A stretch of DNA of 41,459 nucleotides, from the NCBI GenBank assembly GCA_013002045.1, contig JABDKV010000058.1:1-41459 (forward strand), in the 5' to 3' direction. Made by a program: the position numbers and the translations under genes. The DNA comes from Gammaproteobacteria bacterium. Its GTDB lineage: Bacteria > Pseudomonadota > Gammaproteobacteria > Steroidobacterales > JABDKV01. The first letter of the stretch is position 1, and each line of letters opens with the position of its first letter. Under the pieces are notes generated by a model. It searched no databases, was not told the origin of the DNA, and saw nothing but the letters and a program-made list of their open reading frames with translations. Of this stretch, positions 736 to 19,223 are shown one piece after another.

Positions 736-1024
736 ACGAGGTACGCGTTGTTTGGGGGATTCGCCCGTCAGCCGGAGTCCCGGCGGGCTGAGGTGGTCAA
801 CGACAGGTTTCGACACCGGTGCGTCGAATCAGGTCATTCGGAGACAGGTCGGTCCAGGTGTGGCCGACGGACATTACGTGAATAAGGGTAGCGCTTACCT
901 GTTAAATTACGGGAACTTAAGCGCGCTTCCTGGACGTTTCTGTATTGCCAGAGAATCGCAATCTCTGTACGCTGGAGCGTTCCCCGGCAGCCCCCCAATC
1001 ATGTCTTTCAGGAGCATTGTCAAG

Positions 1025-1597
1025 ATGAGGATTTCGATGAGGCGTTTAATGTCGCTTTTTTGCCTGGCAGCAGTTTGTTGCAGCGCGCCGCTCACCGCGG
1101 CCGAAAGCGATGACGGTTACGGCCTCAATCCCGGCGACATATTACAGGTGTCAGTGTGGCGCGAGCCTGAACTGAGTCGCGAGGTCCTGGTACGTCCCGA
1201 TGGCAAGATTAATTTCCCGCTAGTTGGCGATATCGATGTTGCCGACCGCACGCCGGAAGATGTGCAGGTCGAACTGATCGAGCGCTTAGAGCGCTTCATC
1301 CCTGACGCCGTCGCCACCGTTGCCGTCCTCAATGTGGCTGGTAACAAGATTTACATACTCGGCAAGGTGGCACGTCCGGGTGAGTTCCCGGTTACCGGCC
1401 AGGTCGATGTAATGCAGGCACTGGCAATGGCTGGTGGGCTCAATCAGTTTGCAGCCGGAAACAAGATCAAGATTCTGCGACGCGATCAGAACAATGTGCA
1501 GCGCGCGATCGAATTTCGCTACGGCGATGTCGAAGATGGTCGTAGCCTGCAATCCAATATCATGCTGGAGAGTGGTGACGTTGTTGTCGTTCCGTAA
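1025..1597 (+). CDS. Periplasmic polysaccharide export protein (Wza/Poly_export + SLBB; PEP-CTERM-locus EpsE-like)
   Basis: Signal peptide MRISMRRLMSLFCLAAVCCSAPLTA. Motifs PGDILQVSVWREPELS, VRPDGKINFPLVGDIDVA, KIYILGKVARPGEF. AGGAG Shine-Dalgarno at 1010-1014 favours the ATG at 1025 over the track start at 719. Confidence 0.85.
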   Translation: MRISMRRLMSLFCLAAVCCSAPLTAAESDDGYGLNPGDILQVSVWREPELSREVLVRPDGKINFPLVGDIDVADRTPEDVQVELIERLERFIPDAVATVAVLNVAGNKIYILGKVARPGEFPVTGQVDVMQALAMAGGLNQFAAGNKIKILRRDQNNVQRAIEFRYGDVEDGRSLQSNIMLESGDVVVVP

Positions 1598-2795: not shown

Positions 2796-2815
2796 CCCTG
2801 TAGTAGAGGTGCAAA

Positions 2816-4582
2816 GTGGAAACTAACGAAAACAGTTTAAAAGATTATTTGGCCGTTCTGCGTCGTCGCAAGGGGCTGATGATAATTACTTTCTTTTCGT
2901 TGCTGGTGATCTCGATCATCGCGGCATTCCTGTGGCCACCGACCTATCGTTCGACGGCAACGATTCTGATTCGTGACCAGGAGATTCCGCGTGACCTGGT
3001 GCCATCGACCATTACCAGCTTTGCTGACCAGCGCCTTATGGAAATTCAGGCGCGAGTGGTGACCTCGGCCAACCTGATCAAGCTGATCGAAGACTTTGAT
3101 CTGTATCCGGACCTGCGTCGACGCCTGCCGGCGACCGAGGTCGTCGATGAAATGCGCGACGACTATTCGCTCGACCTGGTTAGTGCCGACGTGATCGATC
3201 CACGCACCGGGCGACCCACTCAGGCGACGATTCTTTTCACGTTGTCGTTTGATTACGAGACGCCCGCTATCGCGCAGCAGGTAGCCAATCGTCTCGTCGA
3301 CCTGTATCTCGCAGAGAACCTGCGTGATCGAACCGAGCGTGCGCAGGAAACCACCAGCTTCCTGACTGAGCAGGCGGAAAAGCTGGCCCGCGAAATCGGT
3401 ACGCTGGAGGAGCGCATGTCGCGCTTCAAACAGCAGAATGCAGGTGCACTGCCAGAGCTCTATTCCATTAACCTGCAGATGATGGATCGCACCGAGGCTG
3501 AACTGCGCGAGATACAGCGCCAGATCCGGGTCAACAACGAGGCCCTGATCTACCTGCAGTCGGAACTGGCAACCACACCGAAGGCGGCGCCTATATATAG
3601 TCGCGAGGGCACGGTATTGCCACCCGATCAGCAACTGTCGGCGCTGCAATCGCAATACGCCACCCTTAGCGCCAGCTACGGACCCAATCACCCCGATGTG
3701 GCCTCGATAAGACGTCAGATCGAAGCGCTGAAAGGCGAGGTCGGTGAGGTCACCGATATCGGCGCCCTCGAGACGCAGATGCAGACGGTGCTGGTGGAAC
3801 TGGAAGGCTATCGGGATCGTTATGGTCCGGAACATCCTGACGTGCGCCGACTCGACCGCCAGTATGAGCGCCTGACCGCTGAACGTGATGCGGCGCTGGA
3901 AGCGCAGGTAGCCGGGTCTGATAGTGGTGGCGGATCCGTTGATTCCGGAAATTCGGTGTCGAATCCGAGTTACGTTGCTCTTTCAGCGCGGTTGGCTGCA
4001 GCGCAAGCGGAACAACGCGCCTTGCAGATACGCCAGCAGCAGCTGGCGGACAAGATGGCCAATTACGAAACCCGACTGGTAGCGGCGCCGGAAGTCGAAC
4101 GGGAGTTTAGCGAAATTATCCGTGACCTCGATAATGCCCGCGCCAAGTACCAGGAGATTCGCTCCAAGCAGCTGGCAGCCGAAGTTTCAGAAAGCCTCGA
4201 GCAGGGTCGTAAGGGTGAGCGCTTTGAAGTCGTTGACCCGGCGATGTTACCAACGCTGCCGCATACCCCGAACCGGCTGGCCCTGTTATTCCTGGGCCTG
4301 GTCCTGTCGATGGCCGGCTCGATCGGTACTACTGCGGTATCGGAAAGTATGGATAGCTCAGTGCACAGCCCCAATGCGCTGGCGAAGCTGACCGGGATTG
4401 CGCCGATTGCGACCATCCCAATGATCGAAAATGAGATCGATGTACGGCAAAAACGTCGCCGCATGTGGATGATTATCGGTGGGGTGAGCGCGGCTGTGCT
4501 GATAACCGCCTTGCTCGTCAATTTCCTCTATAAACCGCTCGATGTGTTGTGGTTTATTCTCCTCCGTAAGCTCGGTATCTGA
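2816..4582 (+). CDS. Polysaccharide chain-length determinant (Wzz/GumC-like, PEP-CTERM-locus EpsF-like)
   Basis: N-terminal TM (LMIITFFSLLVISIIAAFLW) followed by PPTYRSTATILI, a long coiled-coil periplasmic region and C-terminal TM helices. GTG start preceded by GAGGT. Confidence 0.85.
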   Translation: METNENSLKDYLAVLRRRKGLMIITFFSLLVISIIAAFLWPPTYRSTATILIRDQEIPRDLVPSTITSFADQRLMEIQARVVTSANLIKLIEDFDLYPDLRRRLPATEVVDEMRDDYSLDLVSADVIDPRTGRPTQATILFTLSFDYETPAIAQQVANRLVDLYLAENLRDRTERAQETTSFLTEQAEKLAREIGTLEERMSRFKQQNAGALPELYSINLQMMDRTEAELREIQRQIRVNNEALIYLQSELATTPKAAPIYSREGTVLPPDQQLSALQSQYATLSASYGPNHPDVASIRRQIEALKGEVGEVTDIGALETQMQTVLVELEGYRDRYGPEHPDVRRLDRQYERLTAERDAALEAQVAGSDSGGGSVDSGNSVSNPSYVALSARLAAAQAEQRALQIRQQQLADKMANYETRLVAAPEVEREFSEIIRDLDNARAKYQEIRSKQLAAEVSESLEQGRKGERFEVVDPAMLPTLPHTPNRLALLFLGLVLSMAGSIGTTAVSESMDSSVHSPNALAKLTGIAPIATIPMIENEIDVRQKRRRMWMIIGGVSAAVLITALLVNFLYKPLDVLWFILLRKLGI

Positions 4583-4608
4583 CCGGCCAAACCAAGTGCA
4601 ATAGAACA

Positions 4609-5427
4609 ATGGAACGAATCAAGGAAGCCCTCGACCGGGCGCGGCAACAACGCGAAGCCGACAATCATGCGGCTCCGGCCAAAGCAGCGCCCGAGGTTGG
4701 CAGGCCCGCCTCATCCGGGCTCGATATCGCGTACACCAGGACACGTGTGCTGACACCCGACCCGGTGGTCATGCGTGATTCGAAGCTGATCGGCTTCGGG
4801 CAAAGCGGCGATGTAGTGACTGACGCCTACCGCATGCTGCGTACCCGCACATTGCGGGCGATGGACGACAATGGCTGGCACTCGCTGGCCGTAACCAGTC
4901 CATGTCCGGGCGAGGGTAAGAGTCTCACTGCAATCAATCTCGCCATGAGCATGGCGCGGGAGATCAATCGCACCGTGTTGCTGGTCGACCTGGACTTGCG
5001 TCGACCCAGCGTGCACAAGTTTTTTGGTTTCGACATCGAGCACGGCATCAGTGAATACCTCACCGAAGATGTGGCGCTGGAAGATGTGCTGATCAATCCT
5101 GCGGTCGAGCGCTTTGTCATCCTCCCCGGGAGTGGCAGGGTGCAAAACTCATCCGAGTTGCTGAATTCACCTCGCATGCGGGCGCTGGCCAGTGAACTGG
5201 CGCAGCGCTATCCGGAACGCATCGTGATTTATGACCTGCCGCCGGTATTGGCGGTCGATGACGCCCTGGCCTTCTCGTCGCTGGTCGATGCCTTCATGCT
5301 GGTCGTCGAAGAGGGTTCGACACAGGCAGAGGACATCGTTGCAGCACATGACGTGTTATCGCAGGCCAATATTGTCGGCACGGTGCTGAACAAGGCGGCT
5401 GAATCCCAGGGTCACTACTACTACTGA
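4609..5427 (+). CDS. BY-kinase-type protein-tyrosine kinase / chain-length co-determinant (EpsG-like)
   Basis: Walker A SPCPGEGKS, Walker A' VLLVDLDLRRP, Walker B IVIYDLPP. The C-terminus ends GHYYY. Confidence 0.85.
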   Translation: MERIKEALDRARQQREADNHAAPAKAAPEVGRPASSGLDIAYTRTRVLTPDPVVMRDSKLIGFGQSGDVVTDAYRMLRTRTLRAMDDNGWHSLAVTSPCPGEGKSLTAINLAMSMAREINRTVLLVDLDLRRPSVHKFFGFDIEHGISEYLTEDVALEDVLINPAVERFVILPGSGRVQNSSELLNSPRMRALASELAQRYPERIVIYDLPPVLAVDDALAFSSLVDAFMLVVEEGSTQAEDIVAAHDVLSQANIVGTVLNKAAESQGHYYY

Positions 5428-5439
5428 CGAAGGCCGACG

Positions 5440-6306
5440 ATGTACGAGTCCTTTTACGGATTTGAGGAAAAACCATTTTCCCTGTTGCCCGACCCGGCAT
5501 TTCTGTACCTGGGTCGTAAACATCGTATGGCGTTGACCATGTTGCAGTACGGCCTGATGAATAATGCCGGATTCACCGTTATCACTGGCGAAATCGGCTC
5601 AGGCAAAACGACACTGATCCGCCAGCTACTCGACGAGATCGAGGCCGATGTGACCGTCGGCCTGATCACCAACACCCACGAGTCCTTCGGTGACCTGTTG
5701 CAGTGGGTATTGATGGCTTACGGTCTTGAGTACAAGGGTAAGGAAAAAGTCGAGCTCTACGAGACTTTTGTTGAGTTCGTTGTCAACGAGTACGCCGAGG
5801 GTCGGCGGGCTGTGCTGATAATCGACGAGGCACAGAACCTGTCACCGAAAACGCTCGAAGAACTGCGCATGTTGTCCAACGTCAACGCTGACAAGAACCA
5901 GGTTTTACAGATGATCATGGTGGGGCAGCCTGAGCTCCGTACGATGTTGATGTTGCCGAGTCTGAAGCAGTTCGCGCAGCGGGTGTCCGTCAGTCATCAC
6001 CTGGATCCGCTCAACTCCGAAGAAACGGTCAAGTACATTCACCATCGCGTATCGGTCGCTGGTGGCGATCCGGCGGTTTTTCCGCCAAAGAGTTGCTCGT
6101 TGATCTGGTATTACAGTCGCGGCGTGCCTCGCGTGATCAACTCACTTTGCGATACCGCGCTGGTTTACGGATTCGCCGAGCAGCGCAAGGAAATCGAGCC
6201 GGAGTTGATCAAGGATGTGGTCCGCGATCGCAAGGCTGGGGGTCTTTTCCCCACTCGCGAGGACGAACCACCGGTGCAACCGACCGGGACAGACGACGGG
6301 GCCTGA
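5440..6306 (+). CDS. ExeA-like AAA+ ATPase (PEP-CTERM-locus putative secretion ATPase)
   Basis: FGFEEKPFSLLPDPAFLYLGRKH N-terminal signature, Walker A GEIGSGKT, Walker B VLIIDEAQ, GVPRVINSLCD. Confidence 0.85.
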   Translation: MYESFYGFEEKPFSLLPDPAFLYLGRKHRMALTMLQYGLMNNAGFTVITGEIGSGKTTLIRQLLDEIEADVTVGLITNTHESFGDLLQWVLMAYGLEYKGKEKVELYETFVEFVVNEYAEGRRAVLIIDEAQNLSPKTLEELRMLSNVNADKNQVLQMIMVGQPELRTMLMLPSLKQFAQRVSVSHHLDPLNSEETVKYIHHRVSVAGGDPAVFPPKSCSLIWYYSRGVPRVINSLCDTALVYGFAEQRKEIEPELIKDVVRDRKAGGLFPTREDEPPVQPTGTDDGA

Positions 6307-6380
6307 ATCGGACGGCCGAACTTTATACAATGTCACGAACGATGGCGCATTCAGCGCCTTTTTATATTTTGAGGTTAATC

Positions 6381-8810
6381 ATGTTGAATATGCGTAATGT
6401 CCTGATACTGCTGGCTGCACTGGTGACTGTCGCCTGCAGCGGCCCCGAGCAGAGGGCAGACAAGTACATGGCCAAGGCGAATGCCTCGTTCGAGGCGGGT
6501 GATTTCGTCAAGGCTGAACTCGATGCCAAGAATACGCTGCAGATCGAGCCACAGAACGCCGATGCCCGTATGTTGCTGGCAAAAATCGCCGAGCAGGAAC
6601 TGCTGACGAACCCGGATAAGTGGCGCGAGATGATGGCGCAGTTGCAGCGTGTGGTCGAACTGGACCCGCAGAATGTTGAGGCGCGCATCAAACTGGCACA
6701 GCTGTATATGCGCTTTATCGCCAACGCGTCGGACAAGCAGCAGATCTTTGACATGATCCGTGACCAGGTCGAGTCGGCCAAGGCAGTCAAGCCTGACGAC
6801 AGCACAGTGCAGACTCTTGAGACCATGCTGGCTTATCACGAGGCCAACGATGCCGGTGACAGTGAAGCAGTCGCAGCGGCGATTGCCCGCGCTGACGCTT
6901 TATTCGATGAGGACCCAACCAACCTGCTGGCGACCAGCTTCCTCGCAGGCTACTACGCCGCTAGCGATAAAGACCTGGCAGTCAGCTATATCGACAGGTC
7001 ACTCGAAGTTGACAAGCAGCCGGCCCTGCGCGTGTTGAAAATCGGCTTGATGCAGGCAGGTGACGATCTGGCCGGCGCCGAACAGGAATACAAGAAGCTG
7101 ATCGAGGAGAATCCGGAGAACGACGAGGTCAAGTACGGGCTGGTGCGCTTCTATGCCGAGAGCGGCCAGGCGGAGAAGGCCGAGTCCATGCTGCGGGACC
7201 TGGTAGCCGCGGACGATGACAACGCCGAAGCCAAGCTGCAGCTGGCTCGTTTCAAGGCGCGCAGTGGTGATGTCGACGGTGCGGAGCAAATACTGCGAGC
7301 GGCCATGGAAGCCCACCCGGACAATTACGACTTTCCGTTCACGTTGTCACAATTGCATTTGCAGCAGGAACGCCAGGAGGCTGCCGAAGAATTGCTGAAC
7401 GAGATCAGCGAAAGCGCAGGCGCCACCGATGACGGCCTCAAGGCGCGTAACCAAATGGCACGGATACGGCTCTCGCAGGAACGCAAGGCCGATGCCGAGG
7501 CTATTATCGACACCGTTCTCGAAGACGAGGCTGCCAACTCCAGCGCGCTGCTCATGAAAGCGGCACTGCAACTCGAACGCTCGGAAACCGACAGCGCCAT
7601 TGCCAACCTGCGGACAGCGTTGCGCAATGATCCGACGTCAGAGCAGGCATTGACGCTGCTGGCGCGCGCGCAGATTGTGGCAAACGACTATGACCTGGCC
7701 AAGGTGACCTACCAGCGACTGGTTGCCGCGCACCCCAACAATGCGGCCGCCCGTCGGGAGCTGGCGCGACTGATGTCACGCGAACGGCAATGGGACGAAT
7801 TACGCAACCTGTTGGTCGACGGTATTGCACGTCATCCCGATGACGTACAGATGACGCGGATGCTGGTGGATACCCTGATCCGGGTCAATGACTGGGATAC
7901 GGCCCAGGTACAGGCTGACCGGATTGTCGATAAAGAGGAAACGCGTCCGCTGGGACTGTACCTGCAAGGTCGCATCCACCAGGCTCGCGGCCGCTACCAG
8001 CAGTCGATCGACGCCTTCAAGCAGGCACTCGAGTTGCAGCCGCGGGCAATCGAACCGTTAACCAACCTCGTGCGTAGCTACGTCGCGATGGACGACCTCG
8101 ACCAGGCTGCGGCCGATATTGAAGAGTTCCTGGCCAATAATGACAACCACGTTCACGCCCAGACCTTATTGGCCGAGGTATATGCCCGCCAGCAGCGTTG
8201 GAGCGATGCGATTGCGGCCAACGATACGGCGCTCAACATCGATGCACGCTGGGTACCGGCTTATCGCAACCTGATTGGATTGCACTTGCTGCGTGGCGAT
8301 TTCAACGAGGCGGAAAAGGCCGCGAATGGCGCGCTCGAGGTTTTGCCCGAGAACGCTGACCTGCGAATGCTGCTGGCGACGGTCTACGAACGCCAGGAGC
8401 GCTTTGACGAGGCCATCGAGATTTATGCAGAGGAGATTCGTCGCAACCCCGATTCGGAGATTGCAATAAACAACTTCGCCGCACTGGTTTCCGACCATAC
8501 TTCCGATCCGGCCAGGCTGGGGCGTGCTTTGCAACTGGCGCAGCGTTTTCGCAACGCCGACAATCCAGTGTTCCTCGATACGCTGGGATGGTTGATGTAT
8601 CGCAATGGCCAGTTCGACGATGCGGTGAAGGTGCTGGAGCAGGCTGTTGATGGCGCGCCCGGCGAGCCGCAACTGCGTTACCACCTCGGAATGGCCTATT
8701 ACGCCGTCGACCGGCTTGAGGGCGCGAAAAGCGAGCTGCAGGCCGCTGTCGCCGCCGATCGTGCCTTCGTCGGCCTCGAGGAAGCGCGCCAGACCCTGGA
8801 ACTACTGTAG
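6381..8810 (+). CDS. Large TPR-repeat lipoprotein (PrsT-like, PEP-CTERM system)
   Basis: Start at ATG 6381 (GAGG at 6371-6374). Lipobox LVTVAC. About 800 aa of tandem TPR-like repeats. The upstream part of track ORF 6093-8810 overlaps the ATPase gene and is rejected. Confidence 0.8.
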   Translation: MLNMRNVLILLAALVTVACSGPEQRADKYMAKANASFEAGDFVKAELDAKNTLQIEPQNADARMLLAKIAEQELLTNPDKWREMMAQLQRVVELDPQNVEARIKLAQLYMRFIANASDKQQIFDMIRDQVESAKAVKPDDSTVQTLETMLAYHEANDAGDSEAVAAAIARADALFDEDPTNLLATSFLAGYYAASDKDLAVSYIDRSLEVDKQPALRVLKIGLMQAGDDLAGAEQEYKKLIEENPENDEVKYGLVRFYAESGQAEKAESMLRDLVAADDDNAEAKLQLARFKARSGDVDGAEQILRAAMEAHPDNYDFPFTLSQLHLQQERQEAAEELLNEISESAGATDDGLKARNQMARIRLSQERKADAEAIIDTVLEDEAANSSALLMKAALQLERSETDSAIANLRTALRNDPTSEQALTLLARAQIVANDYDLAKVTYQRLVAAHPNNAAARRELARLMSRERQWDELRNLLVDGIARHPDDVQMTRMLVDTLIRVNDWDTAQVQADRIVDKEETRPLGLYLQGRIHQARGRYQQSIDAFKQALELQPRAIEPLTNLVRSYVAMDDLDQAAADIEEFLANNDNHVHAQTLLAEVYARQQRWSDAIAANDTALNIDARWVPAYRNLIGLHLLRGDFNEAEKAANGALEVLPENADLRMLLATVYERQERFDEAIEIYAEEIRRNPDSEIAINNFAALVSDHTSDPARLGRALQLAQRFRNADNPVFLDTLGWLMYRNGQFDDAVKVLEQAVDGAPGEPQLRYHLGMAYYAVDRLEGAKSELQAAVAADRAFVGLEEARQTLELL

Positions 8811-9330: not shown

Positions 9331-9927
9331 ATGATCAAGAAAATTATCGGTAGCGTCGCATTGCTCGTGCTGGCGGCTGGCGCCAACGCGAACACCGTGA
9401 GCCTGGAGGGCCCGGCACTACCAGTCACGGGTGGCGACACCTTCGACGTCAATGTAATTGGTGAATTCGGCGCCACCGGAATGGGTGCGGGCGGTTTTCA
9501 GCTGTTCTGGGACAACGCAGTGCTGTCGCTGGACAATTATGTGTCCGCGATCAATCTCGACGATCAGCTGTCATGCCCAAGCGATAACCAGCCGAACTGC
9601 CCCAATGATCCGGACGGCACGTTCTCAAATGTATTCGGAAATTTCAATGGGTTGATCGCACCGGACGCTGGCCCCACGCTGATCGGAACGTTTACGTTTA
9701 CCGTGATCGCGGCTGCCTCTTCAGGTGCAGGTTCAACCTCTACCGCACTGACCATGGCCGACTTTACGCCATTCACCGGTGGCTGGTTCAACAATGGGTT
9801 ATCAGAGCCGATTACCAGTCCTGACCTGATCGGTACCACGATCGAAATTCAGCCGATCCCGCTGCCTGCAGCAGTATGGCTGATGGTTGGTGGCCTGGCA
9901 GCGCTGGCGCGCTTCCGCCGCAGCTAA
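9331..9927 (+). CDS. Secreted cohesin-like domain protein with VPLPA/PEP-CTERM-type C-terminal sorting signal
   Basis: Signal peptide MIKKIIGSVALLVLAAGANA. An all-beta body with a cohesin-like pattern (VSLEGPALPVTGGDTFDVNV, GFQLFWDNAVLSL, LIGTFTFTVIAAASSGAGST). Tail IPLPAAVWLMVGGLAALARFRRS. AGGGAG Shine-Dalgarno. Confidence 0.8.
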   Translation: MIKKIIGSVALLVLAAGANANTVSLEGPALPVTGGDTFDVNVIGEFGATGMGAGGFQLFWDNAVLSLDNYVSAINLDDQLSCPSDNQPNCPNDPDGTFSNVFGNFNGLIAPDAGPTLIGTFTFTVIAAASSGAGSTSTALTMADFTPFTGGWFNNGLSEPITSPDLIGTTIEIQPIPLPAAVWLMVGGLAALARFRRS

Positions 9928-9952: not shown

Positions 9953-9984
9953 AAACCCCGCCTCAAGGCGGGGTTTTTTTGTTT
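9953..9984 (+). terminator. Rho-independent terminator
   Basis: AAACCCCGCC-TCAA-GGCGGGGTTT followed by a T-run (TTTTTTTGTTT). Confidence 0.85.
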
Positions 9985-10149
9985 CAGACGGTGAAACCGG
10001 CGGCGCATGCAGGTAAGGTAGAGCGAGCGTGGCCCGGAAACTGGGCAAGTTTTCGAAATCACCATAGAATGTGATTCGGATCCGTAGCGCAAACAAAATA
10101 ACTATGACGCGACGCTCCGGGTTGTTGGGGGATAATTGAGGTGCGATTT

Positions 10150-13100
10150 GTGAAAAGCAAAATGCTGGTTGCTGCGGCGTCCGCGGCAGTAATGCTGGTT
10201 GCCGGTCTTTCGGCCAATGCAACGTTTTCGATTGGCTGGTTGGCGCAGGGGCTGAATCTGGCCGCCACTACCGGCCAGGGATCCGACCCGACGTCCGTGC
10301 GTGTGCGCACTGCGGACAAGAGTAATGGGTTTCGATGGGAAAAGGGATTAGCGGGCCGGCATCGGTATATCGTGCGCCTCGACGATGACCCACTGGCCAG
10401 CTATCGCGGCGGTATAGATGGGCTGACTGCGACCAATCCCGATACGCTGCGTGCCGGCGCCCGGGCGGCCGCAAAAGTCGCTGCGGCGGGAGGTGATGTA
10501 CGGCTGGACGTAGATAGCGCCGCCAGTCGGGCTTACCTCGACTACCTTGCACGCCAACAAACCAAGGTCGAACAACGCCTGAGTCGCGAAGTAGGCAAGC
10601 TCAATGTCATCTACCGTTATCGTCATGCCTTCAATGGCCTGACGGTGGAAATGACCCAGGAGCAGGCGGCCATCGCGGCTACACTGCCGGGCGTTGCCAC
10701 TGTGCAACGCGACTTCCTGCGCAAGATCAATACCGCCACGTCCGTTGACTGGATCGGGGCAGGTGCCGTCTGGGATGGCAGTGCGACCGGGCTGCAGGCC
10801 CGCGGCGAGGGTGTCATCGTCGGTATCATCGATACCGGGATCAATACCGATCACCCATCGTTTGCAGCAACGAGCCCGGGTGATGGCTACGCCCACGTCA
10901 ACCCGCTGGGGTCCGGCAACTACCTGCGTGATTGCGCGCCATTCGATCCGAACACCAATCCTAACGGCGGTCGCGCCGCGCTGTGCAATGACAAAGTCAT
11001 TGGCACCATGGCTCTGCCGTTATCGGCCGAGAGCGTAGGCCAGGAAGATGCCGAAGACTGGAATGGTCACGGCTCGCATACTGCCGGCACGGCTGCCGGC
11101 AACCTGGTGCTCGACGTGCCGTTTCTGAATTTCGAGGGTAATCCCACGGGTATCGTATTCGACAAGATCACCGGTGTGGCACCGCGTGCAAATGTCTCGG
11201 CCTATATGGCGTGCGGTGAGGGCGGTTGCCCCGGATCGGACCTGGTCGCGGCTATTGACGCCGCAACGGCCGACGGTGTCCATGTGATCAACTATTCAAT
11301 CGGCGGTGGACCAATTGACCCGTGGAATGATGCCGACAGCCTCGCTTTTCTCGGTTCCCGGGATGCCGGAATCTTTGTTGCAACCTCGGCGAGCAACGAT
11401 GGCCCCGATCCAGGAACGGTCGGTTCACCGGCCGTGTCGCCGTGGTTGACCTCCGTTGCTGCCAACTCTCACCAGCGTGCCTGGTCAGAAAAATATGTTG
11501 CCGACATGAGTGGCGGCGATACGCCCCCACCGGCGGATCTCCCCGGTCGTAGCGCGACCGGTGGTTTCGGACCGGCGCCGATTATTTACGCCGGTGACTA
11601 TGGCGATCCGCTGTGCGCCCTCAATGCTTTCGCACCGGGTACTTTTGCGGGCGAGATCGTGGTTTGCGACCGCGGTGGCTTTGCCCTTGTAGATAAGGCT
11701 GCCTCGGCGGCCGCAGGTGGTGCCGGAGCGGTTGTTATCGCCAGCACCGCGTCGTCGGCGCAGGGCCTGTTCGATCTTCCGTATGCCATTCCCGGTATCC
11801 AGATCAACCAGGAGCACGGCGACCTGTTACGGGCGTGGCTGGCGAGTGGCAGTGGGCATGTAGCGACAATCACCGGTGCAATCCCCGAAATCAATCCCGA
11901 TGCAGCCGATATTGTGGCGGCATTCAGTGGTCGGGGCCCAAATGCGTCCGTGCCTGACATCATTAGCCCGAACCTGTCAGCACCCGGTGTCAATGTTTAT
12001 GCCGCTGTGCAGTCGCCTACGGAATACGGACAGCTCAGCGGTACATCGATGTCCGGACCCCATGTAGCCGGCGCGGCGGCGTTGCTGCGTCAGTTGCATC
12101 CGGGTTGGACTGCGGCTGAAATCCATACTGCGCTGGCCACCACGGGGGTGCGTGATCTGCGAACCGAGGAAGATTTTCCCGAGATCGGTACACCGTTTGA
12201 CTATGGTGGCGGGACTATACGTGTCGACGCGGCTGCCCGTGCCGGGCTGTTGATGCATGAGACCACAGCCAACTTCCAGGCGGCTAATCCGGGCCTCGGT
12301 GGTGACCCGACGACACTGAACCTGCCGAGTTTTGGCAATAGCCAGTGTCTCGAAGTATGCACCTGGGAACGCACCGTCAAAGCGACAGCCGCTGCAACAT
12401 GGACCGTCAGCGCCGACAGTGACAGCGGCGTAACAATCAACGCGAGTCCGCAGACTTTCTCGTTGACAGAAGGCGAAACGCAGGTGATCACTGTAACAGC
12501 CGATGTCACCGGACAGCCGTTCGGTGAATGGCTGTTTGGCTGGGTGCACCTGACACCGGATAACGTCGCAGTGTCGCCGCAGGCATTGCCCGTTGCGGTC
12601 GCACCGACGGCCGGCATATTGCCGGAGCTGCTCGAGATTACTGCACATCGCGATGCCGGATCGCAGTTGATTGGCGGCTTCGAAACCGGCTCATTGAGTA
12701 ATGTCATCATCGATGCATATGGCTTATCGGCGCCAGTCGAGACCATTGTAGAGACCGAGGGTGACAACGGTGGCGTGTTCTCGCCTTACACCGAGACCGG
12801 TGTTGATATCTCGTTTTACGATGTACCAGCAGGCTCGGTTATTTTCTCTGCCAGTACAGCAAACAGCACGGCACCCGACATCGATCTGTTCGTCGGCCGT
12901 GACAACAACGGCGATGGCATGATTACGGCTGACGAGGAGTTGTGCCAGAGCGGCGGACCCGTCTCCATCGAACGCTGCGACCTTACCGGCGCAGACGTGC
13001 AGCAGGGCGGTAGCTTCTGGGTGGCAGTGGTGGCGTTCGAAGCCAGTGCGCCCAATGCAATCGATACGACGGAGCTGACCGTGGCGACCGCCGCACCGAG

Positions 13101-14586
13101 CACGGGCAATTTCTCAATTGAGGCGCCGTCGTTCGCTACCCCGGGTGAGGCCTGGAACATTCGCGCCTTCTGGGATGAATCGATGTCGGCGGGTGACATG
13201 ATGTTTGGCGCTGTCGAGGTGTTTGGCAACGGCGAATCGCTGGCGCTTATCCCGGTCGAGTTACGCCGCGGTGAGGACGATGTGCGCATCACCGCGTCAG
13301 ATACTATCGTCGACGCCAATCAGCCCATCACCATGACTGTTGAAGTCGAGACCAACCTGTCTCCCGAAGACCTGTTCTATGTCATCGATGCCGACATACC
13401 GGATGGTTTTGAATATGTGCCAGGCTCCGCTGATGTCAGCGAGGGTAATGTGTACGTGATCAACAACCAGTTGATCTGGATTCTGCCGCACCCGACGCTG
13501 GCGTTTGAACCGAATTTCTACGAAACCCACCTGAATGGCCCGGGTGTGGATCCCACCGATCCGCATTACAACCCGGCCTGCGACACCGGCTTTGGTGGTT
13601 ATGTCGATCTGGAGAGTTTTGGTATCGATGCGAACCCGACGATTTCGGGCGACACGATCTCGTACTTCACGCTCGAAGGTCAAAACCTGCCGTTTTACGA
13701 CAAACCGAAGACGGCTTTCACGATCACCGACGATGGTTTTGGCGTGTTTGCCTCGGGTGTAGGCAATACGCCGTGGCAGAACACCGGTATACCCAACGAT
13801 GCAGAACCCAACGATATGGTTGCAATCGCCTGGACCGATACTGAGATCGTCTATGACGCAGCGACCAACAGTGGCGTAACCATTGCGGCGCCGGGACCGA
13901 ACCTGAGTGTTGTCGAGTTCGACGACATGCAGCGTTATCCGGCCGGATCCAGCAGCGACCGGATCGACTACCAGGTCGTGTTCAACGGCGCTATCGATGA
14001 TGGTGCCAACAAGTTTGAACTGGTGCTGGCGTACGACAATATTGTCGGTGACTGGAGCGACGTAACGGTCGGTGTCGAGAACCAGGCCGGTGATGCCGGT
14101 TCGCAATACGGCGGTGCGCTTAGCGATGGCCTGATGATCTGCTATGACTATGTCGGACCGGACCTGAGCGCCGAAACGATGACTTACCAGATTCAGGCTG
14201 TGGATGCTTCAGGCGATATCGCACATGAGCTGTTTAGTATCGTCAATATGCCGGGAAGTCGTGAAAGCTCGACCAGCATCATGCTGACGGTGACGGCAGA
14301 CACTGATGCAGACGGTGTCGGTGACAACATCGATAATTGTACTGCGGTGGCAAACCCGGACCAGGTCGACGTTGACCAGGACGGTTTCGGCAACGCCTGC
14401 GATCCTGACTTCAACCAGGATGGACGAGTCGATTTCTGGGACCTGATGATGATGAAGTCGATGTACCAGACAGCTGATCCGCTGGGTGACCTGACCGGTG
14501 ACGGCTGGGTCGATGTCGCCGACCTCAATGTTATGCGTAGCCTGTTCTTCGGCCTTCCAGGTCCAAGCGCCGCTGGGCAGCAATAA
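10150..14586 (+). CDS. Giant secreted S8 subtilisin-family protease with I9 propeptide, PA insert, PPC-like domain, TSP3 repeats and dockerin-like C-terminus
   Basis: Catalytic motifs VGIIDTGI (Asp), NGHGSHTAGTAAG (His), SGTSMSGPHVAG (Ser). PA-like insert GEIVVCDRGGFALVDKA. DIDLFVGRDNNGDG. Tail DTDADGVGDNIDNC...DQDGFGNACD + DFNQDGRVDFWDL + DLTGDGWVDVADL. Start ambiguous: GTG 10141, GTG 10150 (GAGGTG 6 nt upstream) or ATG 10162. Confidence 0.9.
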   Translation: MKSKMLVAAASAAVMLVAGLSANATFSIGWLAQGLNLAATTGQGSDPTSVRVRTADKSNGFRWEKGLAGRHRYIVRLDDDPLASYRGGIDGLTATNPDTLRAGARAAAKVAAAGGDVRLDVDSAASRAYLDYLARQQTKVEQRLSREVGKLNVIYRYRHAFNGLTVEMTQEQAAIAATLPGVATVQRDFLRKINTATSVDWIGAGAVWDGSATGLQARGEGVIVGIIDTGINTDHPSFAATSPGDGYAHVNPLGSGNYLRDCAPFDPNTNPNGGRAALCNDKVIGTMALPLSAESVGQEDAEDWNGHGSHTAGTAAGNLVLDVPFLNFEGNPTGIVFDKITGVAPRANVSAYMACGEGGCPGSDLVAAIDAATADGVHVINYSIGGGPIDPWNDADSLAFLGSRDAGIFVATSASNDGPDPGTVGSPAVSPWLTSVAANSHQRAWSEKYVADMSGGDTPPPADLPGRSATGGFGPAPIIYAGDYGDPLCALNAFAPGTFAGEIVVCDRGGFALVDKAASAAAGGAGAVVIASTASSAQGLFDLPYAIPGIQINQEHGDLLRAWLASGSGHVATITGAIPEINPDAADIVAAFSGRGPNASVPDIISPNLSAPGVNVYAAVQSPTEYGQLSGTSMSGPHVAGAAALLRQLHPGWTAAEIHTALATTGVRDLRTEEDFPEIGTPFDYGGGTIRVDAAARAGLLMHETTANFQAANPGLGGDPTTLNLPSFGNSQCLEVCTWERTVKATAAATWTVSADSDSGVTINASPQTFSLTEGETQVITVTADVTGQPFGEWLFGWVHLTPDNVAVSPQALPVAVAPTAGILPELLEITAHRDAGSQLIGGFETGSLSNVIIDAYGLSAPVETIVETEGDNGGVFSPYTETGVDISFYDVPAGSVIFSASTANSTAPDIDLFVGRDNNGDGMITADEELCQSGGPVSIERCDLTGADVQQGGSFWVAVVAFEASAPNAIDTTELTVATAAPSTGNFSIEAPSFATPGEAWNIRAFWDESMSAGDMMFGAVEVFGNGESLALIPVELRRGEDDVRITASDTIVDANQPITMTVEVETNLSPEDLFYVIDADIPDGFEYVPGSADVSEGNVYVINNQLIWILPHPTLAFEPNFYETHLNGPGVDPTDPHYNPACDTGFGGYVDLESFGIDANPTISGDTISYFTLEGQNLPFYDKPKTAFTITDDGFGVFASGVGNTPWQNTGIPNDAEPNDMVAIAWTDTEIVYDAATNSGVTIAAPGPNLSVVEFDDMQRYPAGSSSDRIDYQVVFNGAIDDGANKFELVLAYDNIVGDWSDVTVGVENQAGDAGSQYGGALSDGLMICYDYVGPDLSAETMTYQIQAVDASGDIAHELFSIVNMPGSRESSTSIMLTVTADTDADGVGDNIDNCTAVANPDQVDVDQDGFGNACDPDFNQDGRVDFWDLMMMKSMYQTADPLGDLTGDGWVDVADLNVMRSLFFGLPGPSAAGQQ

Positions 14587-14628: not shown

Positions 14629-14679
14629 AATAACAAAACAGACCTCCGCTCGCAGCAGCCAGTGGAAGGAGGCAGGGTA

Positions 14680-17514
14680 ATGAGAGCAAGTACCTGGATT
14701 TTTTGCCTGATCGCGGTTGTGGCCGCGAGCGCCCACGCAGAGGTTCGCACCACAGTGCTGCCAAAGCTCGATCGTCAGCAACTGCTGACCGAGGATGCTG
14801 CCGCGCCGGCCGGGCAACCACTGCGTGTTGCAATCGACTACCCGATCGGAACAAAAACGCCCGAACGCCTTGCACGGCAGGCCGATGGGGGTTACCGCTG
14901 GAGCCAGCGGTATCACGTACCCGGTGCCACCGAGCTAAGCCTGGGCTTTGGAGACTTCTGGTTGCCTGACGGTATCAGTGTGCGGGTCTACGACGAGCAG
15001 CGACGCACGATGCGTGGTCCCTACACGTCAGCAGACAATAAACCTCATCGTGAACTGTGGGTGCCTGTTGTGCCCGGCGACACGATGATCGTGGAAATCA
15101 GCGCCAACAAGCCGAAAGGCCAGCCAGTCGAGTTGCAGGCGCCAGCATTGAAGATTATCCAGGTCAATGCCGGTTATCGTGACCTGTTCGGCCTCGAGGG
15201 CAAGCCCGACCTGACACGCGGTGGCCCGGCACCGTGCAATATCGATGTAGTGTGCCCGCAGGCCGACAACTGGCGCGATGAGCTACGTGCCGTGGCCCGC
15301 TATACCATTGTGCTGGGCGGCGGTACCTTCCTGTGTACCGGACAGCTCATTGCCGACGAACCTCGGTCGCTAAATAACCTGTTCCTGACGGCGGATCATT
15401 GCGGACCATCACCGTCGAGCGACCAGACCATGATTTTCTACTGGAATTTCGAATCACCAGCTTGTGGCCAGCTCGGCGGCGGGTCGCTGAGCCAGGCACA
15501 ATCGGGCGCAATTTTTCGTGCCTCCCGTCAGAACGTCGATTTCAGCCTGGTCGAACTGGAAGATGAGCCGTTGCAGGACTGGAATGTCTACTACATCGGC
15601 TGGGATCGGAGCTTCGGTAATATCCCGGGCCTGACTGTCGGGATCCATCATCCCGGCGGTAATGAAAAAATGATCAGCCTCAATACCAACGGCACATTGT
15701 CGCAACAGGTTTGTATTGCAGGAACCAACGATCCCAACGGTTTTATCTTCCTCAGCTGGGAGCAGGGTATTACCGAGCCTGGTTCGTCTGGTTCGGGCCT
15801 GTTTCGAGGGGACAACAAGAAACTGGTCGGTGTCTTGAGTGGCGGTACACAAGGCGCAAATTGTTCCAACGTCGGCTTCGACTGCTACGGACGTTTCGCC
15901 AGCGCCTGGGACGGCAGCACTGCCTCGACCCGGTTGCGGGACTGGCTCGATCCCAACGGCACCGACGCCGTCATGGTCGATGGTTTCGACCCCAATGTCG
16001 GTATCTGTGGCGATGCCGTCGTTGTCGGCGCTGAGAATTGTGACGATGGTAATGTGCAGTCCGGTGACGGCTGCTCAGCGAGTTGCCAGGTAGAAGCCGG
16101 CTTCGCCTGCACGTTGCCGGTGAGCACGGCTGGACTGCGTGATGGCAGCTTCGAAGGCGGTACCCCGAATCCGGACTGGCATGAGTTCTCCATGAATAAC
16201 GACGAGATACTGTGCACCGGGCCCGGATGTAGCGGCGGGTTGGCCGAGGATGGCTCGTGGTTTGCCTGGTTTGGTCGTGCCAGCAATGAGGCCGAAGTCG
16301 GGTTTCTCGAGCAGACATTAATCATCCCGGTCGACGCGACGACTTTTGCTATGCAGGTGGTGGCGCCAATCTGTGACAGCGCCAATGACCTGCTACGGGT
16401 GACGATAGATGACAGCCCGATCATTCAGATCGATGGTGACGATCTGGATTTCTGCCCCACATTTGCCTATGTGCCGGTCAGTGGCGACGTGACGCCCTTC
16501 GCGGATGGCGGTGTGCACGTGCTGCGCATCGAGGCGCAGCAACACCTGCAGGGTGGGTCGAGTACGGATTTCTTCATCGACTCGCTGGCCCTTGACGGCA
16601 GTACTGGCGGTGACGGCACCCCCAGTATTTGTACGCCCTTACCTGAGACCTGTTTTGCAGACGATTTCAGTGCTGGTCTGGGAAACTGGACGACTTTTGC
16701 GACCGGCGCCAATCCGGCAGGCTGGGGCATTACTAACGATGGTACCTGCAACAGTAATCCTGCCACCCCAGACGGTAACTTCACCAGTGGCAGTGGCGAC
16801 GCCGCCTGTGTTGACGCCGACGCCGCCGGACCCGGGGTGATAGATGCTTATCTGTGCGGACCGTCACTGAACTTTGGCACTATTGTCGATCCACGACTGG
16901 TTTTTGATTACAGCTACCAGATCGACGGTGTGCCCGACAGCGACGACCTGTTGGCCGTGCTCGTCGGCAATGCACCTCCCGGTGCCGCGACCATCGGCGG
17001 TTACACTGCTGTGTGGGACCGCACAATAGATGCCGGTGCCGAATTCAATGTGCCGGGCTTCGATGCAGATTTGCCGCTCGACAGCTTCACCGGCCAATCG
17101 GTGCACGTGTGTTTCCGATACCGCGCCGACGATGACTGGTATGCACAAATCGACAACGTCGCGGTGCGCGCCAGCCAATGCGAATCCGCAATAGATACCG
17201 ACAATGATGGTATTGCCGACCCGCTGGATAACTGTGTGCTGCTTGCCAACGCAGGCCAGGCTGACAGTGACGGCGACAATATCGGCAATGCCTGCGATGC
17301 CGACCTCGCACCACAACCCAACGACTGTATCGTGAACTTTGCCGATCTGAATGCGCTGAAGAATGCGTTTTTCTCAAATCCGCAATCACCGTCGTGGAAT
17401 GCCGATGCGGACTTCAATGACGATCAGCAGGTCAATTTCATCGACCTCAATATCATGAAGCAGGGTTTTTTCGGGGCGCCCGGGCCAAGTGGATTGCCGA
17501 ACGACTGTAGCTGA
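14680..17514 (+). CDS. Secreted S1 (lysyl-endopeptidase/Achromobacter protease I-like) serine protease with Cys-rich repeat, two jelly-roll-like domains, TSP3 repeats and dockerin-like C-terminus
   Basis: AGGAGG 7 nt before ATG 14680. Signal peptide MRASTWIFCLIAVVAASAHA. LTADHCG (His), NVDFSLVELE (Asp), TEPGSSGSGLF (Ser), RLRDWLDP as in Lys-C. CGDAVVVGAENCDDGNVQSGDGCSASC Cys-rich repeat. Tail DTDNDGIADPLDNC...DSDGDNIGNACD + two dockerin-like segments. Confidence 0.88.
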   Translation: MRASTWIFCLIAVVAASAHAEVRTTVLPKLDRQQLLTEDAAAPAGQPLRVAIDYPIGTKTPERLARQADGGYRWSQRYHVPGATELSLGFGDFWLPDGISVRVYDEQRRTMRGPYTSADNKPHRELWVPVVPGDTMIVEISANKPKGQPVELQAPALKIIQVNAGYRDLFGLEGKPDLTRGGPAPCNIDVVCPQADNWRDELRAVARYTIVLGGGTFLCTGQLIADEPRSLNNLFLTADHCGPSPSSDQTMIFYWNFESPACGQLGGGSLSQAQSGAIFRASRQNVDFSLVELEDEPLQDWNVYYIGWDRSFGNIPGLTVGIHHPGGNEKMISLNTNGTLSQQVCIAGTNDPNGFIFLSWEQGITEPGSSGSGLFRGDNKKLVGVLSGGTQGANCSNVGFDCYGRFASAWDGSTASTRLRDWLDPNGTDAVMVDGFDPNVGICGDAVVVGAENCDDGNVQSGDGCSASCQVEAGFACTLPVSTAGLRDGSFEGGTPNPDWHEFSMNNDEILCTGPGCSGGLAEDGSWFAWFGRASNEAEVGFLEQTLIIPVDATTFAMQVVAPICDSANDLLRVTIDDSPIIQIDGDDLDFCPTFAYVPVSGDVTPFADGGVHVLRIEAQQHLQGGSSTDFFIDSLALDGSTGGDGTPSICTPLPETCFADDFSAGLGNWTTFATGANPAGWGITNDGTCNSNPATPDGNFTSGSGDAACVDADAAGPGVIDAYLCGPSLNFGTIVDPRLVFDYSYQIDGVPDSDDLLAVLVGNAPPGAATIGGYTAVWDRTIDAGAEFNVPGFDADLPLDSFTGQSVHVCFRYRADDDWYAQIDNVAVRASQCESAIDTDNDGIADPLDNCVLLANAGQADSDGDNIGNACDADLAPQPNDCIVNFADLNALKNAFFSNPQSPSWNADADFNDDQQVNFIDLNIMKQGFFGAPGPSGLPNDCS

Positions 17515-17621: not shown

Positions 17622-19223
17622 ATGCACGGATCACTCGGTGTTTCCACGTCGGCCTTCCGCTCCCTGCCGGACCCGGCATTGCTGTACCTGTCTGACCAGC
17701 ACGCGCGCGCGCTGGCCTTCATCGACCTGTCGCTTCGCTATCCCGGATGTATGAGCGTGCTCATTGCCGAGCGCGGCTGCGGTAAGACCATCCTGGTCAG
17801 TACTGCGCTGGCCGCCGCCGTACGACCTGTCGAGGTGGTGCAACTCGATGCCGCCGGATTGACCGCCAGGGACATCCTGCAACAGGTACAGGCGCAATTA
17901 ATCAGCAGTGAGCCTGGCGATTCCGTCTTACCAGGATTGACGGCGGTCCGCGCGACACTCGCCAGGCGGGGTGATCTGGTCGTACTGGTTATCGACAATG
18001 CACATCGGATCGATGTGGCGCTATTCGAAACGATCAACGCCATGACGCGGGGCGATGACGGCGCCGGCCGACTCAGCCTGGTCCTGATCGGCGAGCCCGG
18101 GCTCGATGTGCTGGTGCATACCCTCGATCGCAGTCTGCTGGAAAACTGGACGACACTGGTGGCGCACGTTCACCCGCTGAATCTCCAGGATGTGCAGCAA
18201 TATGTCATGCAACGCTTACGGGCCGATGGCAGTGAGAACCCCGGAGAACTGGTTGCAGACGAGGTGTTTCCGCTTCTGCATAGTCTGAGCGAGGGCATAC
18301 CTGCCAGGATCAATGCGATCTGCGAGGTGGCTACCCGTCTCGCGCATGAATCGGGGGCTCGCATGATCGCGGTAGAGCATGTGCATGCAGCTGCGATCCA
18401 GCTTGGTGTCGGCGTCGCGGACGGTACCGAACTGGCGCTGGTGCACAACACCGCTGTACCGAGCCTCAGTATTGCGCGTGACGACGAAACGCTAAGAGTC
18501 CATCCACTCGACCAGGAAAGGACGATGATCGGTCGTGGCAGGGACAACGAGATCACCATCGATGCGCCGTACGTCAGTCGTCACCATGCACTGATCGTCC
18601 GCGATGAGCGCGGTTTCTGGCTATTCGATATGAATAGCACTAACGGCACCCTTGTTAATGGTCAGCGGGTATTACAGCGACAATATCTTTATCCCGGTGA
18701 TCAGATCCGTATCGGGCGACACCAGATGACTTTTTTTGGACCGCGACAGGAACGCGCCACCGGGGCTGCCGAATTGCGCGATGACCGAAGTCACGCACAG
18801 ACCATGGTTGATACCCATACCGGCGATGCACAGAGTGCCCTGGAGCAGATCGAGCTACGGCTGCAACACAATCCGGACCTGATAGAGCTGAAGTTCGAAC
18901 GTGGCTGCCTGCTGAGTGATCTTGGGCGAGCCGAGGATGCCATTGAGCAGTTCCGTGCAATTACCGAGAGCGACGAATCGACGGCCGAGGCTCATAACAA
19001 CCTTGCAGTCCTGTTTGCCAACAGCGGCGAGTTGCACCAGGCACGTGCCGAGCTTGAGCAGGCCCTGGTAATCGATCCCGACTACAATCGGGCTCGCGAG
19101 AACCTCGGCAATGTGCTGCTACACCTGGCACTGGAGCAATTCGACCTGGCGATGCTGCAACCGGTGGATCCGCAGTCATGCCAGATCAAACGCCTGACTC
19201 TGAGTCGATTGCTCGGGAGCTAG
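17622..19223 (+). CDS. ExeA-like AAA+ domain / FHA domain / TPR fusion protein
   Basis: The N-terminus FRSLPDPALLYLSDQHARAL parallels the ATPase at 5440. Walker A ERGCGKT, Walker B VLVIDNAH. FHA motifs GRGRDNEITI...SRHHALI...STNGTLVNG. C-terminal TPR (AEAHNNLAVLFANSGELHQA...ALVIDPDY). Confidence 0.8.
   Translation: MHGSLGVSTSAFRSLPDPALLYLSDQHARALAFIDLSLRYPGCMSVLIAERGCGKTILVSTALAAAVRPVEVVQLDAAGLTARDILQQVQAQLISSEPGDSVLPGLTAVRATLARRGDLVVLVIDNAHRIDVALFETINAMTRGDDGAGRLSLVLIGEPGLDVLVHTLDRSLLENWTTLVAHVHPLNLQDVQQYVMQRLRADGSENPGELVADEVFPLLHSLSEGIPARINAICEVATRLAHESGARMIAVEHVHAAAIQLGVGVADGTELALVHNTAVPSLSIARDDETLRVHPLDQERTMIGRGRDNEITIDAPYVSRHHALIVRDERGFWLFDMNSTNGTLVNGQRVLQRQYLYPGDQIRIGRHQMTFFGPRQERATGAAELRDDRSHAQTMVDTHTGDAQSALEQIELRLQHNPDLIELKFERGCLLSDLGRAEDAIEQFRAITESDESTAEAHNNLAVLFANSGELHQARAELEQALVIDPDYNRARENLGNVLLHLALEQFDLAMLQPVDPQSCQIKRLTLSRLLGS

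Follow-up and report, generated by a model that had tools for sequence, protein, structure and literature searches.

Why should two secreted proteases of unrelated families, encoded side by side, end in the same module, and what might that module hold on to? The question is raised by contig JABDKV010000058.1 of a gammaproteobacterium assigned to the Steroidobacterales, a stretch of 41,459 nucleotides (the window) in which an S8 protease gene is followed by an S1 protease gene. An earlier note on this DNA had pointed out the common tail and offered three readings of it: a docking module, a Ca2+-dependent anchor to matrix or exopolysaccharide (EPS), or an unrecognised secretion or sorting tag. 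The answer that we favour, and that the sequences render probable while leaving it well short of secure, is that exoenzymes carrying a dockerin tag are docked, at the cell surface or within the matrix, by a single cohesin anchored by an exosortase. Like the bacteria that form cellulosomes, this one probably keeps secreted enzymes tethered to its surface or its slime layer.

Two unrelated proteases end in the same module

The S8 protease gene (10141..14586, + strand) encodes 1481 amino acids that comprise a signal peptide, an Inhibitor_I9 domain, a Peptidase_S8 domain with a PA insert, an fn3_6 domain, a long beta-rich middle region and the C-terminal module. The S1 protease gene (14662..17514, + strand; 950 amino acids) encodes a signal peptide, a trypsin-like domain, a Cys-rich acidic repeat (TIGR02232 / myxo_disulf_rpt in the family-model scan), a choice-of-anchor J domain (NF038128, 33.6 bits for a cut-off of 30) and the module. 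The choice-of-anchor J domain directly precedes the module, an arrangement that fits a module standing in for an anchor signal. The tails compared here are the last 95 residues of the S8 protease and the last 106 residues of the S1 protease; their translations match those read in the earlier note, and both are the C-termini of long open reading frames (ORFs) that begin with signal peptides.

The tails are 41% identical over 99 columns (E=1e-19, BLASTP with compositional adjustment), and all six reading frames of the window together contain only two FFGxPGPS motifs, at 14545-14568 and 17467-17490. Since Asp/Asn-rich repeats can inflate scores, a resemblance due to chance or to low-complexity acidic repeats had to be considered, but the E-value was obtained under compositional adjustment, both tails match curated models, and hundreds of homologues have the full architecture. 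Recent gene conversion was the other trivial explanation. The tail-coding DNA is 64.7% identical and the longest exact word in common is 10 nucleotides, which argues against a recent duplication or conversion. Alignment, domain and DNA-identity results together refute these explanations, to which we give next to no credence, and as far as the sequences tell, the similarity of the two tails is old and maintained and does not stem from a recent copy. The earlier note had taken the same position and had argued from it for selection on the module, a view that is strengthened by the size of the family and by conservation in orthologues (see below).

The module is one thrombospondin type 3 unit followed by one dockerin

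Each tail of about 100 amino acids is composed of one thrombospondin type 3 (TSP3) unit, one complete type-I-like dockerin and a PGPSG end. The tails were scanned alone against Pfam, with curated cut-offs of 22.9 bits for Dockerin_1 and 25 bits for TSP_3; all module coordinates refer to the + strand. In the S8 protease, the TSP3 unit (14299..14403; DTDADGVGDNIDNC...DQDGFGNACD, with one Cys pair) scores 28.4 bits with PF02412, the dockerin (14404..14550), made of two Ca-loop and helix segments (DFNQDGRVDFWDLMMMKSMY and DLTGDGWVDVADLNVMRSLFF), scores 29.6 bits with PF00404, and the cap (14551..14586) reads GLPGPSAAGQQ before the stop codon. In the S1 protease, the TSP3 unit (17194..17298) aligns column for column with that of the S8 protease and scores 24.1 bits, slightly under the cut-off; the dockerin (17299..17472; loop 1 APQPNDCIVNFADL, canonical loop 2 DFNDDQQVNFIDL) scores 24.0 bits, and the cap (17473..17514) is GAPGPSGLPNDCS followed by the stop codon. 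Both TSP3 units have the motif DxDxDG/DNC...Q.D.D.DG.GD.CD with two Cys, and their end, ...GNACD-x-D, leads straight into the first Ca loop of the dockerin with no linker between. The two S8 loops (DFNQDGRVDFWD and DLTGDGWVDVAD) and loop 2 of S1 (DFNDDQQVNFID) conform to a 12-residue EF-hand-like pattern with D/N at positions 1, 3, 5, 9 and 12; loop 1 of S1 departs from it through an insert of 3 residues and a Cys at loop position 6. The architecture proposed in the earlier note is therefore correct in outline (TSP3, dockerin, FFGxPGPS) and is corrected in its counts: the TSP3 'repeats' are a single unit, and the 'two dockerin-like segments' are the two EF-hand-like halves of one dockerin.

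Profile and structure comparisons agree with this assignment. A profile built from 58 dockerin-plus-cap segments matches dockerins of the PDB (E=3e-11), and also the double dockerin of a Clostridium thermocellum serine protease (E=3e-9). The AlphaFold2 (AF2) model of the S8 tail, computed from 111 sequences, has a mean predicted local distance difference test score (pLDDT) of 94.9 and shows helices after both Ca loops (tail residues 46-55 and 73-81). Foldseek places it closest to the dockerin 2y3n_B (template modelling (TM) score 0.80, target-normalised; root-mean-square deviation 1.1 over 52 columns), with further dockerins next, and the thrombospondin T3 structures 1ux6 and 1yo8 are also matched; the E-values are modest (1.5e-3) because the dockerin domain is small. 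By sequence profile and by modelled fold, the tails are thus true dockerins. Of the readings in the earlier note, the docking module is the one that these results bear out, together with the cohesin-like gene that adjoins the S8 gene. The module is highly acidic and rich in Ca ligands, and the residues present suggest that it binds Ca2+.

The PGPSG end is likely to be part of the fold

The earlier note had asked whether the FFGxPGPS terminus is invariant. It is nearly so, and it is not always terminal. PGP[SAGN] is found in 116 of 122 family sequences, 109 of which read PGPS, mostly followed by G and 2-10 further residues, and the motif usually lies 3-12 residues from the C-terminus. This near-invariance and this position, added to the choice-of-anchor domain that precedes the module, are arguments for a C-terminal secretion or sorting signal, which would be read by a dedicated enzyme or secretion system and be removed or modified. 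Several observations speak against such a tag. The 5-7 residues that follow PGPS in the window tails are polar (AAGQQ in S8, GLPNDCS in S1), with no membrane helix or basic cluster in either of them, and no NCBIfam sorting-signal model matches FFGxPGPS tails. Moreover, PGPS is kept in internal copies, both in tandem modules (4/4 in protein P0122, 5/6 in P0124; such proteins carry 2-6 modules) and in modules that are N-terminal, as in an M23 peptidase where the module precedes the catalytic domain (locus L008) and in L038. The motif is also modelled confidently inside the fold (residues 81-90 of the S8 tail, mean pLDDT 94). We consider a tag of this sort very improbable. A tripartite signal of the PEP-CTERM, LPXTG or GlyGly-CTERM type, with its helix and basic residues, was rejected on the composition of the tails and on the non-terminal copies.

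A last argument against a tag comes from Cys residues. The Cys at position 6 of Ca loop 1 and a Cys shortly after PGPSG occur together or not at all in most sequences (55 none/none, 39 one/one, 14 off-diagonal). The Cys subclass includes the S1 protease (...PNDC.../...PNDCS), and the Cys-free subclass includes the S8 protease. This covariation suggests a tail that turns back to lie on loop 1 and that, in the Cys subclass, a disulfide fastens in this position; in the S1 protease the loop-1 Cys and the tail Cys would form this bond. PGPSG and the tail would then make up a C-terminal clasp, covalent by disulfide in the subclass to which the S1 protease belongs. Intramolecular clasps have been described for some dockerins (PMC12484212), and we liken the PGPSG clasp to them.

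Two rarer kinds of tail were seen in the family. A third subclass reads PGPSG-x-x-CAGT-x-PCP, with two Cys within the tail; it is found at C-termini and also, in the L008 M23 peptidase, behind the internal module. In two proteins (P0054 and P0082) a PEP-CTERM-like segment, VSAPATAMLLLAGLLAWRTARRSRA, comes behind a module that closes with PGPN, a rare association of a dockerin and an exosortase-type signal on one chain.

The gene upstream of the S8 protease encodes a putative receptor

The earlier note had missed an ORF of 198 amino acids (9331..9927, + strand) that lies between the PrsT gene and the S8 gene, directly upstream of the latter. Its product comprises a signal peptide (amino acids 1-21, 9331-9393), a beta-sandwich that resembles divergent cohesins (amino acids 22-175, 9394-9855) and, at the extreme C-terminus, a VPLPA-CTERM sorting domain of the PEP-CTERM family (IPLPAAVWLMVGGLAALARFRRS; amino acids 176-198, 9856-9924). 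The sorting domain scores 27.4 bits with TIGR03370 (cut-off 25.35) and is kept in 11/11 relatives of the protein.

The identity of the middle domain was approached with family profiles of 5, 6 and 10 sequences, searched against 177,635 PDB sequences. All three have the Ruminococcus flavefaciens ScaC cohesin 5lxv_A as their only significant match (E=1.3e-5, 3.1e-6 and 4e-5, respectively), and with the 10-sequence profile ranks 2 and 3 are also cohesins (4uyp_A and 3kcp_A), matched over nearly the entire domain. Pfam Cohesin (PF00963) matches one of six relatives (E=3e-4). With a low-confidence AF2 model as the query (pLDDT 55), the top ~46 Foldseek matches in the PDB are all cohesins (E 1e-4 to 1e-2, TM 0.3-0.5). 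On this profile-level homology we conclude that the middle domain is a divergent cohesin. There is one such domain per protein, and no carbohydrate-binding module (CBM). Neither this family nor the PGPSG-capped dockerin is covered by a curated model in our Pfam and NCBIfam scans; in public records those cohesin-like proteins that have a name are all called 'hypothetical protein' and the dockerin carriers only 'thrombospondin type 3 repeat-containing protein'.

The five closest relatives of the cohesin-like domain share two invariant Cys (SCP...CP.DP) in a variable loop, which has an insertion of ~60 amino acids in the L004/L032 lineage; the pair is missing from three lineages (L009, L026 and L034) in the ten-sequence alignment, and such a pair is not known to us from classical cohesins. 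A terminator-like hairpin (CCCCGCCTCAAGGCGGGG, then a T run; 9955..9985, + strand) found by a consensus scan lies 3' of the gene. It is a weak hint that the cohesin-like gene is its own transcription unit, since such sites are no more frequent in the region than in shuffled sequence.

Dockerin-module genes adjoin the cohesin-like gene in most lineages

Loci encoding a cohesin-like protein were drawn from genome and metagenome scans, in which most matches had only the VPLPA-CTERM signal in common with the query and were used as controls. In six of seven lineages dockerin-module genes adjoin the cohesin-like VPLPA-CTERM gene. The order in the window is cohesin-like gene, S8-dockerin gene, S1-dockerin gene. 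Three Gammaproteobacteria metagenome genomes (L004, L005 and L006) have the same order in the same XrtA locus (described below), with an S8 orthologue that ends in the module and an S1 orthologue that carries many TSP3 repeats; their cohesin-like proteins are only 27-36% identical to that of the window. In L008 the cohesin-like gene is followed by genes for a 302-aa dockerin protein and for the M23 peptidase with the N-terminal module. In the Acidiferrobacterales loci L009 and L029 a 1002-aa propeller protein (lactonase-like) with a module is encoded before the cohesin-like gene, and an S8 protease and a 746-aa cytochrome-c-like protein, each with a module, after it. L026 has an S8-plus-module gene before the cohesin-like gene, and L034 has a gene for a DUF11-repeat protein with a module after it. 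The seventh lineage, L033, is not linked: its cohesin-like VPLPA-CTERM gene (4769-5422), whose product is 40% identical to that of the window, lies among housekeeping genes with no dockerin gene within 11 kb. The L033 neighbours encode a pepQ-like protein, a Spondin_N protein, a class II ribonucleotide reductase, Hsp20 and DegP, and L033 comes from the same metagenome as L001, the locus that holds an S1 orthologue.

The module is absent from the 14 control loci, which have a VPLPA-CTERM protein without a cohesin-like domain and, being of mixed taxa, provide a weak baseline. A crude Fisher test of linkage, in which L010 was entered as a control locus with modules, gives p ~1e-4 to 1e-3. L010 (1623-9211) encodes a 235-aa VPLPA-CTERM protein whose N-terminal domain is not cohesin-like, and 2-4 kb downstream two dockerin-module proteins (BNR/sortilin-like, 519 aa; S8, 1067 aa); its VPLPA-CTERM protein could be a different receptor, or the vicinity could be a coincidence.

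This linkage bears on two alternatives to the docking of tagged enzymes by a cohesin. The first is that the module works without a cohesin, as a Ca2+-dependent stabiliser, as a self-associating domain or as a binder of acidic EPS through Ca2+ bridges, the VPLPA-CTERM neighbour being an unrelated matrix protein that happens to be co-located. The module is indeed very acidic, has many Ca ligands and sits in an EPS locus, its family greatly exceeds the cohesin-like proteins detected, the cohesin-like gene of L033 stands alone, and many non-cellulosomal dockerins have no known partner (PMC5244752). However, the linked genes vary in order and in catalytic domain (S8, S1, M23, lactonase-like propeller, cytochrome-c-like, DUF11), and the pairings in L008, L029, L026 and L034 lie outside XrtA loci. 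What the linked genes have in common is the dockerin module, not the enzyme type or the EPS locus, as one would expect if they encode the ligands of a receptor; in addition, the only significant PDB relatives of the neighbour protein are cohesins. A cohesin-free module is in our opinion unlikely, without being far-fetched. The Ca2+-dependent matrix or EPS anchor of the earlier note survives in part, in the Ca-binding residues and in a receptor signal that is encoded in an EPS locus; the tether itself is more plausibly protein-protein than a direct binding to EPS.

The second alternative makes the cohesin-like VPLPA-CTERM protein a substrate, inhibitor or maturation partner of the adjacent proteases, for instance a PEP-CTERM matrix protein that they process. 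An S8 protease is its immediate neighbour in four lineages, and PEP-CTERM proteins are said to be matrix components. Such a role accounts poorly for L008, L029 and L034, where linked genes encode non-proteases (the 302-aa protein of no known function, the propeller, the cytochrome-c-like protein and the DUF11-repeat protein) that all bear the module, and we regard it as improbable.

The module is widespread and its carriers are diverse

The module is not limited to the two proteases of the window, a point that the earlier note had left to a search. A word-indexed protein search with the tails returned 286 matches, all shorter than 190 amino acids and mostly without a source name; the few named sources are Gammaproteobacteria or Pseudomonadota metagenome genomes. 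A hidden Markov model (HMM) search of 1.84 billion cluster representatives returned 38,508 proteins at E<=1e-3, a set that covers every dockerin kind, and 4,936 at E<=1e-10. Among the best 150 proteins of the HMM search, 56 of the 146 newly returned ones have at least one full-length module with the cap. Other domains on the carriers include S8, M23, GH39, GH43, FG-GAP, PhoD, Ig-like and cadherin-like domains. The top HMM scorers (for example P0121, P0123 and P0137) have 5-46 dockerin-like stretches and no PGPSG cap; they form a separate multi-dockerin class that has no bearing on the module discussed here.

In orthologues of both proteases the module is about as well conserved as the remaining protein. 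The S8 orthologue in L004 is 65% identical overall and 55% in the module, which again stands at its end; the S1 orthologue in L001 is ~52-53% identical overall and 49% in the module, and keeps the tail and the Cys pair. The number of TSP3 units varies, from one in the window proteases to at least 10 in tandem in the L004 S1 orthologue, a variation that fits a spacer role. The latter gene (15600-19346) is split in the gene call at ~16991, through a frameshift or a late start call.

The locus carries genes of an XrtA-type exopolysaccharide system

The genes upstream of the putative receptor (719..8810, + strand) belong to an XrtA/PEP-CTERM-system EPS locus and encode an export protein, a 453-aa ORF product, a chain-length determinant, a Tyr autokinase, the system ATPase and the TPR protein PrsT. 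Their best NCBIfam matches are TIGR03027, TIGR03007, TIGR03018, TIGR03015 and TIGR02917, all below the curated cut-offs, and they have Pfam matches too. L004, L005, L006 and L032 have EPS genes in the same order ahead of their cohesin-like gene. The 453-aa ORF (1434-2795) has no family match and only a faint PorV-like similarity; it could encode the outer-membrane component of the EPS locus. Downstream of the S1 gene, an AAA_22 ATPase fused to FHA and TPR domains (17622..19223, + strand), a relative of the XrtA-system ATPase (TIGR03015, E=3e-26), closes the cassette; in L001, too, it comes immediately after the S1 orthologue.

Discussion

How the parts would act together can be outlined from the established exosortase and cohesin-dockerin systems. 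The cohesin-like protein would be a Sec substrate that its C-terminal helix retains until an exosortase processes the VPLPA-CTERM signal. The cohesin would then remain at the surface or within the exopolysaccharide that the neighbouring XrtA-type locus produces. The proteases would also be exported by Sec, and their tails would fold around extracellular Ca2+: the TSP3 unit as a Ca-stiffened, disulfide-bonded spacer between enzyme and anchor, the PGPSG clasp on the first Ca loop, where it may stabilise the small dockerin. The dockerin could then plug into the cohesin, and the proteases, with the peptides that they release, would stay near the producing cell. One cohesin gene may serve many dispersed dockerin genes, other tagged enzymes encoded elsewhere in the genome using the same anchor.

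Several observations weigh against this scheme. Concerning the receptor, the cohesin assignment depends on profiles made from 5-10 sequences: Pfam Cohesin does not match the window protein even at E<=10, single-sequence PDB searches with the cohesin-like proteins of two other lineages find no cohesin, and the AF2 model, all-beta as it is, has low confidence and was built from 5 sequences only. Concerning the anchor, no exosortase gene is present within the 41-kb window, where XrtA-system accessory genes adjoin the cohesin-like gene, and we know of no established route by which PEP-CTERM proteins cross the outer membrane to reach the outside of a diderm cell. Concerning the pairing, the cohesin-like gene of L033 has its housekeeping context, the dockerin genes of L002 and L003 have no cohesin-like neighbour, and the dockerin-module proteins detected far outnumber the cohesin-like proteins. 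Cellulosomal enzymes, too, are encoded by dispersed genes such as those of L002 and L003. The excess of dockerins could come from a word-indexed search of limited sensitivity, or many modules may have other partners or none. Finally, dockerins of the S8 type have other residues at helix positions than those of the S1 type, and each type is conserved orthologously across genomes, so that one common receptor is not guaranteed; a homogenisation of the dockerins within a genome, which would be a sign of co-evolution with one cohesin, was not seen by eye.

Docking by an anchored cohesin nevertheless remains the reading that we prefer for the window, and it can be extended to other bacteria with less assurance. 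It is, to our mind, an even matter whether a two-tier surface display, hitherto unrecognised, exists in Gammaproteobacteria of the sea and of sediments (Acidiferrobacterales among them), in which an exosortase-sorted single cohesin recruits a diverse secretome tagged with the TSP3-dockerin-PGPSG module; the sequences suggest that this secretome would comprise proteases, peptidoglycan hydrolases, glycosidases and cytochrome-like proteins. If true, abundant sediment- and particle-associated Gammaproteobacteria would retain proteases and other hydrolases in their own matrix and avoid losing them by diffusion, which bears on 'selfish' versus 'shared' models of extracellular organic-matter degradation. 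It would also give a testable function to non-cellulosomal dockerins and cohesins and to cargo of the PEP-CTERM/exosortase system. The pair would be the equivalent of the cellulosome anchor in a Gram-negative, non-cellulolytic setting, with the first receptor role proposed for PEP-CTERM-family cargo. Being compact, Ca-switchable and native to diderm bacteria, such a cohesin-dockerin pair might be used for surface display.

Comparison with known systems

PEP-CTERM/exosortase protein sorting was reportedly described by Haft and colleagues in 2006 and 2012. The putative receptor resembles the cargo of that system in its PEP-CTERM-family signal and in its position within an XrtA-type EPS locus; the window proteases differ from it in that they have no PEP-CTERM signal themselves. 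To our knowledge, a PEP-CTERM cargo that acts as a receptor and recruits a second tier of proteins has not been described, and we found no publication that links PEP-CTERM/exosortase signals to cohesin-dockerin pairs. Our literature search, which did not cover the survey of Peer et al. (2009), likewise found no cohesin anchored by a PEP-CTERM-family signal, no linkage of such a cohesin to dockerin genes and no TSP3-dockerin-PGPSG subtype.

Outside cellulosomes, cohesins and dockerins have been found in each of the three domains of life, with a function given as unknown (PMC5244752); examples are those of Archaeoglobus fulgidus (2xdh), of Clostridium perfringens toxin complexes (2ozn) and of S. 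degradans ORFs (PMC2386152). The putative window pair is like them in that the folds are employed outside cellulose degradation, often on proteases, with functions that are mostly unknown. The GC-type dockerin (NF041540) embodies a like idea, an anchor made of a C-terminal dockerin-like domain, but the window tails are not members of this family (24.2 bits for the S8 tail with a cut-off of 29, and no match for the S1 tail). Compared with cellulosomes proper, there is no multi-cohesin scaffoldin and no CBM, and the linked enzymes are proteases and other proteins that are not carbohydrate-active enzymes.

Among proteases, the closest case is the S8 protease Clo1313_0689 of C. thermocellum, which has a double dockerin (PDB 8x39/8x3a) and for which anchoring at the cell surface was proposed (Chen et al. 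2024, as reported in PMC12484212). Like the S8 protease of the window it is subtilisin-like and bears a dockerin, and its first dockerin has an intramolecular clasp. It differs, as far as that secondary account describes it, in having two dockerins where the window proteases have one, in its Gram-positive, cellulosomal context, in the chemistry of the anchor and in having neither TSP3 nor PGPSG.

The system that is closest in its logic is R. flavefaciens ScaE. Reportedly, this protein has a single cohesin, is attached to the cell wall by sortase (LPXTG) and docks dockerin-bearing proteins. A cysteine peptidase is among the dockerin-bearing proteins of this species (PMC12484212). The window differs from it in that the host is a Gram-negative gammaproteobacterium and the signal is VPLPA-CTERM/PEP-CTERM (exosortase) instead of LPXTG (sortase), and in that it lacks an X-module, a scaffoldin hierarchy, a CBM and cellulases. 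Its dockerin also differs, by the fused TSP3 unit and the PGPSG cap. The likeness lies in one cohesin per anchor protein, in a C-terminal sorting signal for a transpeptidase-type system and in dockerin-bearing enzymes, peptidases included, that are or would be held at the surface; and the only significant PDB relative of the window cohesin-like domain, the ScaC cohesin, comes from R. flavefaciens as well.

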